Of a DNA stretch of 64,000 bases, positions 9,341-9,468 are shown piece after piece. Source of the stretch: Escherichia coli (GTDB lineage Bacteria > Pseudomonadota > Gammaproteobacteria > Enterobacterales > Enterobacteriaceae); the NCBI RefSeq assembly GCF_003334335.1, contig NZ_QOWQ01000003.1, one strand, 5' to 3'. The notes below the pieces were generated by a model. The model did no database searches. It had not been told where the DNA came from and saw only the letters and a list, made by a program, of their open reading frames with translations. The translations under genes were made by a program, and so were the position numbers. The stretch's first letter is position 1. Every line of letters starts with the position of its first letter.

Positions 9341-9364
9341 CAAAAAAAGCCTCCACTGGGAGGC
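9341..9364 (-). terminator. pheST attenuator terminator hairpin downstream of the pheM leader
   Basis: On the minus strand GCCTCCCAGTGGAGGC followed by TTTTTTT (plus-strand aaaaaaagcctccactgggaggc). Confidence 0.7.
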
Positions 9365-9423
9365 TTTCAGGCGCTGTTTTCCGTTTCTCTTCTCACGCGC
9401 TAGCCTCCTGGATTCAGGTGCTA

Positions 9424-9468
9424 AAGTAAAAAAAGAAGCGGAAAATAGCAGCATTCATTGCTTGCGTT
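9424..9468 (-). CDS. pheM: pheST operon leader peptide (14 aa, [14 protein letters not shown])
   Basis: Reverse complement of 9424-9468 reads ATG AAT GCT GCT ATT TTC CGC TTC TTT TTT TAC TTT AGC ACC TGA; 5 of 14 codons are Phe. Confidence 0.9.

Follow-up and report, generated by a model that had tools for sequence, protein, structure and literature searches.

What is the very short, phenylalanine-rich reading frame that lies between the ribosomal-protein genes and pheS in Escherichia coli, and does it govern transcription of the genes beyond it? The stretch of DNA analyzed here (the window; 64,000 nucleotides of contig NZ_QOWQ01000003.1) had been read once before from its letters alone. In this original prediction, a leader ORF with five Phe codons, followed by a hairpin and a T-run, was taken as the classical arrangement for attenuation of pheST by ribosome stalling, a claim to be abandoned if the region yielded no mutually exclusive hairpins on folding. 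Our analysis indicates that the locus is almost certainly the E. coli pheM leader together with the ribosome-stalling transcription attenuator of the pheST(-ihfA) operon.

Gene neighborhood and flanking signals

The genes of the minus strand run in the order thrS (10830..12758), infC, rpmI, rplT (9581..9937), pheM, and pheS (start at 9130), continuing downstream of pheS with pheT (5745..8132) and ihfA (5441..5740). Beginning 11 nt past the rplT stop codon is a terminator hairpin at 9550..9570 on the minus strand (AGAGGGAG-CTAGT-CTCCCTCT, then TTT; -17.2 kcal/mol), the stem bases of which are 70-90% or more conserved across 79 sequences. This hairpin closes the thrS-infC-rpmI-rplT unit and directly precedes a promoter-like pair of hexamers at 9497..9525 (minus strand), with a -35 TTGACT at 9525-9520, a 17-nt spacer, and a -10 TTCAAT at 9502-9497. 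The pair was found by eye, and both hexamers are 70-90% conserved across 79 Enterobacterales sequences. TTGACT-N17-TTCAAT is probably the pheM promoter. A consensus promoter scan of the region reported no promoter, missing this pair because position 2 of its -10 hexamer is not A. At the other end of the intergenic region, the ribosome-binding site and start codon of pheS occupy 9128..9140 (minus strand), with GAGG at 9140-9137 and ATG at 9130-9128 when projected from the RefSeq pheS start. The sequence ACACAATGAGGAAAACCATG at the pheS start is invariant in 6 genera.

Three observations concern other parts of the window. The infC gene starts with ATT (AUU) at 10824-10826 (minus strand), 3 nt past the thrS stop codon. 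This is the known unusual start codon of IF3, and on account of it the ORF lister returned only a truncated 144-aa GTG frame. A match to the Rfam model of the STnc540 sRNA at 5341-5499 (minus strand; 67.4 bits, gathering score 38) spans the 3' terminus of ihfA and the interval that separates it from btuC. Finally, two 43-nt Rfam matches to the ES036 (CssrF) sRNA lie ~7 kb apart on the plus strand, at 26407-26449 and 33553-33595, scoring 55.5 and 42.9 bits, respectively (gathering score 37.6).

The leader reading frame

The pheM frame occupies 9414..9458 on the minus strand, from ATG (9458-9456) to TGA (9416-9414), and comprises 14 sense codons. Reading of the sequence places Phe at codons 6, 8, 9, 10, and 12 (9443-9441 and 9437-9423, minus strand), with one Tyr codon separating Phe10 from Phe12. 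The predicted 14-codon ORF with five Phe codons upstream of pheS is therefore present, at 9458..9414, and its stop codon lies 283 nt from the pheS ATG (9130). Across all six frames of the 64-kb window, pheM is the sole site with five Phe residues within seven consecutive codons. Block shuffles yielded a mean of 0.06 such sites, with at least one site in 6 of 100 shuffles. A Shine-Dalgarno-like AAGG (9471..9474, minus strand), the likely ribosome-binding site of pheM, is located upstream of the ATG inside the block AAGGTAACGCAAGC, which shows 90% or higher conservation among 79 sequences. The leader ORF of a classical attenuator can accordingly be recognized here, with its Phe cluster, start codon, and AAGG block all conserved.

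A second frame of 44 aa, which opens at an out-of-frame ATG at 9454 (9320..9454), was rejected as a gene. Its ATG is missing in 22 of 78 loci, and its passage through the terminator was also counted against it.

Identity of the element

On the minus strand, 9340..9464 matches the full length of the Rfam family RF01859 (Phe_leader; model positions 1-125 of 125) with E = 6.8e-11 and 75 bits, above the gathering score of 55. The span originally proposed, 9341-9468, frames the element correctly. Many E. coli chromosomes match window positions 9100-9620 with 100% identity, and each of the 5426 complete E. coli genomes contains a match. At the equivalent position, RefSeq annotates a 'pheST operon leader peptide PheM' and a 'Phe leader region'. 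In K-12 MG1655, to which 700 nt of the window are identical, pheM is b1715 and is likewise separated from pheS by 283 nt. Together, the Rfam match, the sequence identity, and the RefSeq and K-12 annotations establish the feature as the known pheM. Weak Rfam matches to mir-5444, mir-4716, sX9, and SraG scored far below the gathering score and were discarded as chance matches to the long hairpin. In one strain, E. coli CDE2901-yvys (NZ_CP170179.1), an IS200C-family transposase gene lies inside the equivalent of 9100-9620, and the match to the rplT end, pheM, and the pheS start is split into two pieces across ~1.2 kb.

The pheM leader and the pheST attenuator are already known, annotated, and experimentally studied. 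The leader has been described as Phe-rich, with stem-loops in two alternative structures (PMC5371410, citing Trudel et al. 1984). A PheM attenuator reporter has been used in work that refers to the site-directed mutagenesis by Mayaux et al. 1985 (PMC3831192), and pheST is given as a classical attenuator in gamma-proteobacteria (PMC1262725). In vivo, read-through is reported to increase as charged tRNA-Phe becomes scarce (Trudel et al. 1984 and Mayaux et al. 1985, through PMC5371410 and PMC3831192).

Alternative RNA structures

The leader region folds with -58.5 kcal/mol (z = -5.8 against dinucleotide shuffles). Its intrinsic terminator, formed by segments 3 and 4, is found at 9342..9368 on the minus strand, where GAAAGCCUCC and GGAGGCUUUU enclose a CAGU loop and are followed by T7 at 9348-9342. 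Written as DNA, the site reads GAAAGCCTCC-CAGT-GGAGGCTTTT with further T, the stem extending over 9368..9345. A terminator scan gave a stem of 10 bp with 5 GC pairs, and the hairpin has an energy of -14.4 kcal/mol. An intrinsic terminator thus separates the leader from pheS, the first structural gene, as in a classical attenuator. Counted from the pheM stop codon, the hairpin starts 46 nt downstream and the T-run 66 nt downstream, so that the earlier description of a GC hairpin plus T-run at about 60 nt was a fair one.

Upstream of the terminator, segment 2 can be paired in either of two ways. This segment (9373..9408, minus strand) consists of GGAGGCUAG at 9408-9400, GCGU at 9398-9395, and the purine-rich GUGAGAAGAGAAACGGAAAACAGC. 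In minimum-free-energy folds, its bases 9404-9373 pair with segment 1 (9420..9449, minus strand; leader codons 4-13), which contributes the 5' arm of the anti-antiterminator (1:2) helix. This helix, 9449-9420 with 9404-9373, is a duplex of ~30 bp with a predicted energy of -36.5 kcal/mol. Alternatively, segment 2 pairs with segment 3 to form an antiterminator at 9359..9408 (minus strand), predicted at -17.0 kcal/mol with a 20-nt loop. The outer stem of the antiterminator joins 9408-9402 to 9365-9359 (GGAGGCU/AGCCUCC) and 9401-9400 to 9370-9369 (AG/CU), while the inner stem joins 9398-9395 to 9374-9371 (GCGU/GCGC). The antiterminator and the 5' arm of the terminator use identical bases and are therefore mutually exclusive. 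A small 5' hairpin seen in the E. coli minimum-free-energy fold (alignment A1 columns 6-18) was excluded from the element, being paired in 31% across species.

The length of the 1:2 duplex bears on a different reading of the locus, in which the long leader duplex serves mainly to admit RNase III and thereby to set the stability of pheST mRNA, with attenuation secondary. RNase III was verified in vitro to cleave inside the pheM termination structure, and decay of the message downstream is slower in an rnc mutant than in the wild type (PMC5371410). The cleavage is also independent evidence that the long duplex forms. However, RNase III cleavage adds to attenuation and replaces nothing, leaving the Phe codons, the conserved antiterminator, and the terminator unexplained, and the authors of that study treat it as turnover of the attenuator RNA (PMC5371410). 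RNase III-controlled decay is real, but it is additional to attenuation, and we regard a mainly stability-setting role as highly improbable.

Dependence of pairing on ribosome position

When the full-length RNA was folded at equilibrium, the terminator was always kept, even in the presence of a stalled-ribosome footprint. As such folds are unfit for testing a kinetic switch, the transcript was instead folded after truncation just before the 3' arm of the terminator, with the ribosome footprint masked (assumed to extend from -15 to +14 nt relative to the first base of the A-site codon). With the footprint on Phe6, 8, 9, 10, or 12 of the E. coli leader, 9365-9359 paired with 9408-9402. Without a ribosome, or when the footprint lay at the stop codon, leader codons 4-13 were engaged in the 1:2 helix, which a footprint on a Phe codon precludes, and the 5' arm of the terminator was unpaired. 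Mutually exclusive hairpins were thus found, and in the truncated transcripts the choice between them tracks the position of the ribosome as the classical model requires, so that the outcome named as fatal to the original prediction did not arise. These models imply that the antiterminator would act only as a kinetic, co-transcriptional choice, as the classical model assumes.

Conservation across Enterobacterales

We assembled comparable loci by a PheS scan limited to one genome per species, which gave 80 Enterobacterales loci from genera including Escherichia, Salmonella, Citrobacter, Erwinia, Pantoea, Yersinia, Dickeya, Serratia, Hafnia, and Edwardsiella. These comprise 73 distinct sequences from ~40 genera, on which the switch test was performed free of alignment, using sequence anchors. 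A leader ORF with the core FRFFFYFS, with a T-run ~65 nt further on, is present in 78 of the 80 loci; in the remaining two, the sequence before pheS extends for only 135 and 222 nt, too little to judge. The terminator core GCCUCC...GG(A/G)GGCUUUU was found in 73/73 sequences, and the two-stem antiterminator design is common to 72 distinct sequences.

The response to ribosome position was shared as well. With a ribosome on a Phe codon, at least five of the six GCCUCC bases were sequestered upstream in 68-72 of the 73 sequences, compared with 2/73 without a ribosome and 0/73 with a ribosome at the stop codon. Strict switch-like behavior was displayed by 42.5% of real sequences and by 4.2% of shuffled-spacer controls. 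In the stalled condition, 42% of these controls also paired GCCUCC upstream, because the spacer is G-rich. The upstream arm of the antiterminator starts 4-6 nt past the stop codon in 68/73 sequences. This spacing, along with the 0/73 sequestered under the assumed footprint at the stop codon, is consistent with occlusion of the arm by a ribosome at that codon.

Base pairing was also scored column by column in a MAFFT alignment of the 73 sequences. For the terminated state overall, 84.8% of cells were paired versus 45-63% for slid partners, and for the antiterminator, 85.9% versus 38-57%. The 22 pairs of the main 1:2 helix were formed in 93.5% of cells, and 5 of them varied on both sides. Variation was mostly one-sided (A-U to G-U). 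As the core stems are nearly invariant, true compensatory covariation is sparse, and some counts of pairs changed on both sides may be artifacts, since MAFFT sets the 5' arm of the terminator in two registers. Overall, the geometry of the switch has been held constant across ~40 genera of Enterobacterales.

One position of the 1:2 helix (9439-9445 with 9377-9383; A1 columns 27/89) varies in a distinctive manner. Here, the wobble C of Phe6 (UUC) pairs with a G of ACGG. The pair is C-G in 24 sequences, U-A in 10, and unpaired in 39, where CGG becomes CGA. By eye, CGA loci often carry the Arg codon CGU and not CGC, a change that would move the single mismatch of the helix.

The same comparison weighs on a further alternative, that the hairpin terminates transcription constitutively or insulates pheS from the ribosomal-protein genes, and that the Phe-rich mini-ORF is an untranslated product of chance. 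The terminator is indeed strong and present in every equilibrium fold, and translation of pheM is itself predicted from sequence. However, rplT already possesses its own terminator, at 9570-9550, and the window contains no second Phe cluster of this density, against a chance expectation of 0.06. Moreover, the peptide, its ATG and TGA, and the AAGG block are kept in ~40 genera through synonymous changes (CGC/CGT, TTT/TTC, AAT/AAC), and the distance from stop codon to antiterminator arm is likewise held. A constitutive terminator beside a chance ORF is very unlikely given the conserved peptide, start, stop, and spacing and the separate rplT terminator.

Proposed mechanism of attenuation

In the ribosome-stalling mechanism that we favor, transcription would start at the promoter between rplT and pheM, and a ribosome would translate the 14-codon leader as RNA polymerase advances. 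When Phe-tRNA(Phe) is plentiful, the ribosome should reach the UGA, where its footprint would cover the GGAGGCU, which in E. coli starts 5 nt beyond that codon. On a transcript that the ribosome has already left, or that none has entered, the leader codons would instead form the 1:2 helix with the purine-rich segment 2. Either of these non-stalled states would leave segment 3 free to pair with segment 4, and the resulting hairpin and U-run would stop transcription ahead of pheS. Under a shortage of Phe-tRNA(Phe), the ribosome would stall on a Phe codon and keep segment 1 single-stranded. Segment 2 (GGAGGCUAG...GCGU) could then pair with segment 3 (GCGCCU...AGCCUCC) once the latter has been transcribed. 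With this antiterminator formed, no terminator would arise, and polymerase would continue into pheS and pheT. The 1:2 helix may additionally have a role in polymerase pausing. The pairings, their dependence on ribosome position, and their conservation are demonstrated in silico in this work, and the in vivo response of the attenuator is taken from the literature.

It is scarcely credible that a bound factor (uncharged tRNA at a T-box, a small molecule at a riboswitch, or an RNA-binding protein) switches these structures in place of a stalled ribosome: although aminoacyl-tRNA synthetase genes of Firmicutes are commonly under T-boxes (PMC1262725), the same source sets gamma-proteobacterial pheST, as classical attenuation, against them; Phe_leader is the sole Rfam family supported here, with no T-box or riboswitch model matching 9100-9700 even at E up to 1 and no T-box at the gathering score anywhere in the 64-kb window; and the part of the switch that is sensitive to ribosome position is exactly the Phe-codon stretch. 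For attenuation by ribosome stalling, as first proposed for this locus, all parts are present and conserved, and Rfam, RefSeq, and the literature agree.

A repeat element in the pheS 5' UTR

The distance between attenuator and pheS in this genome is enlarged by a dispersed inverted-repeat element of ~150 bp, at 9173..9322, which is not part of the attenuator. Comparison with another E. coli (L002) and with other genera shows the element as a clean indel, and the spacer from terminator to pheS is ~146 nt longer in the window than in that E. coli and in most genera. Its terminal inverted repeats of 16 nt (9177-9192 and 9302-9317) are 88% complementary, and the whole folds end to end as one long hairpin (-55.7 kcal/mol, z = -4.95). 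Alignment with a paralogous copy between rlmKL and ycbX and with a Salmonella copy set the ends of the element as TAA(A/G)AGCC...GGCTCTAA. E. coli genomes contain a median of 5 copies and up to 8, which RefSeq leaves without annotation, and related copies occur in Pantoea, Klebsiella, Citrobacter, and Salmonella records. A copy at pheS appears to be present in ~88% of E. coli genomes and absent from ~12%, the latter estimate being based on 654 records in which the best element match is only 80-90% identical and on 644 genomes that cover less than 80% of the 521-nt query. The Salmonella Senftenberg copy (NZ_LN868944.1, L084:401-611) carries a nested GC-rich insertion of ~61 nt at its center, which looks palindromic.

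The element resembles the 'RSA' repeats of E. coli (~152 bp, ~6 copies). As a lead only, it may be an RSA/BEE95 repeat, since its length, its copy number, and its occurrence in several enterobacterial genera agree with that family. Literature searches gave no name for the ~150-bp element and a single trace of the RSA/BEE95 family, a reference title in PMC3751351. Because the element sits past the terminator, it is transcribed only after read-through of the attenuator. It could conceivably form a strain-variable second layer on pheST expression, affecting mRNA stability, RNase processing, or translation efficiency, but we consider this unlikely.

Other genera also contain long spacers. The attenuator and pheS are separated by 167-365 nt in some loci (L062-L065 and L074, Yersinia; L064, Hafnia; L081, Serratia; L007/L013/L014/L032, Citrobacter and relatives), compared with about 60-90 nt in most relatives. 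When the E. coli element was searched by BLAST against the long spacers of other genera, it matched only Escherichia sp. locus L003, which indicates that those in Yersinia, Hafnia, and Citrobacter are different insertions. The extra DNA in these spacers is structured and unrelated to the E. coli element. Small insertions seem to have landed repeatedly in the spacer between attenuator and pheS.

Comparison with known systems

The closest known system is E. coli K-12 pheM (b1715)/pheST-ihfA, which is the same element with no difference. At least 700 nt are identical, and K-12 shares both the order thrS-infC-rpmI-rplT-pheM-pheS-pheT-ihfA and the 283-nt spacing. The attenuator was recognized from raw sequence, and its recognition adds nothing to the biology. 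The Rfam RF01859 consensus depicts the terminated state, with an outer 1:2 helix, small inner hairpins, and the terminator, as observed here, although one of its two small inner hairpins is poorly matched in this locus (gaps, low posterior probability). The Rfam structure line is drawn without the antiterminator, which was derived in this analysis. Its coordinates, absent from that line and from the RefSeq annotation, are made explicit above.

Two other E. coli leaders invite comparison. pheL, the leader of pheA, is likewise rich in Phe codons and likewise precedes a terminator controlled by ribosome stalling. It differs in locus and peptide, lies outside this window, and controls chorismate mutase/prephenate dehydratase. 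trpL, of the trp operon attenuator and the textbook four-segment model, follows the same logic as pheM, with regulatory codons, 1:2, 2:3, and 3:4 pairings, and occlusion of segment 2 by a ribosome at the stop codon. The regulatory codons of pheM are five Phe within seven, whereas those of trpL are two adjacent Trp. In comparison with trpL, segment 2 of pheM is very long, and its loop-forming purine tract pairs with the U-rich Phe codons. Finally, trpL controls a biosynthetic pathway, whereas pheM controls an aminoacyl-tRNA synthetase operon, making the pheST attenuator a classic case of such an operon sensing its own product, charged tRNA-Phe, through ribosome stalling.
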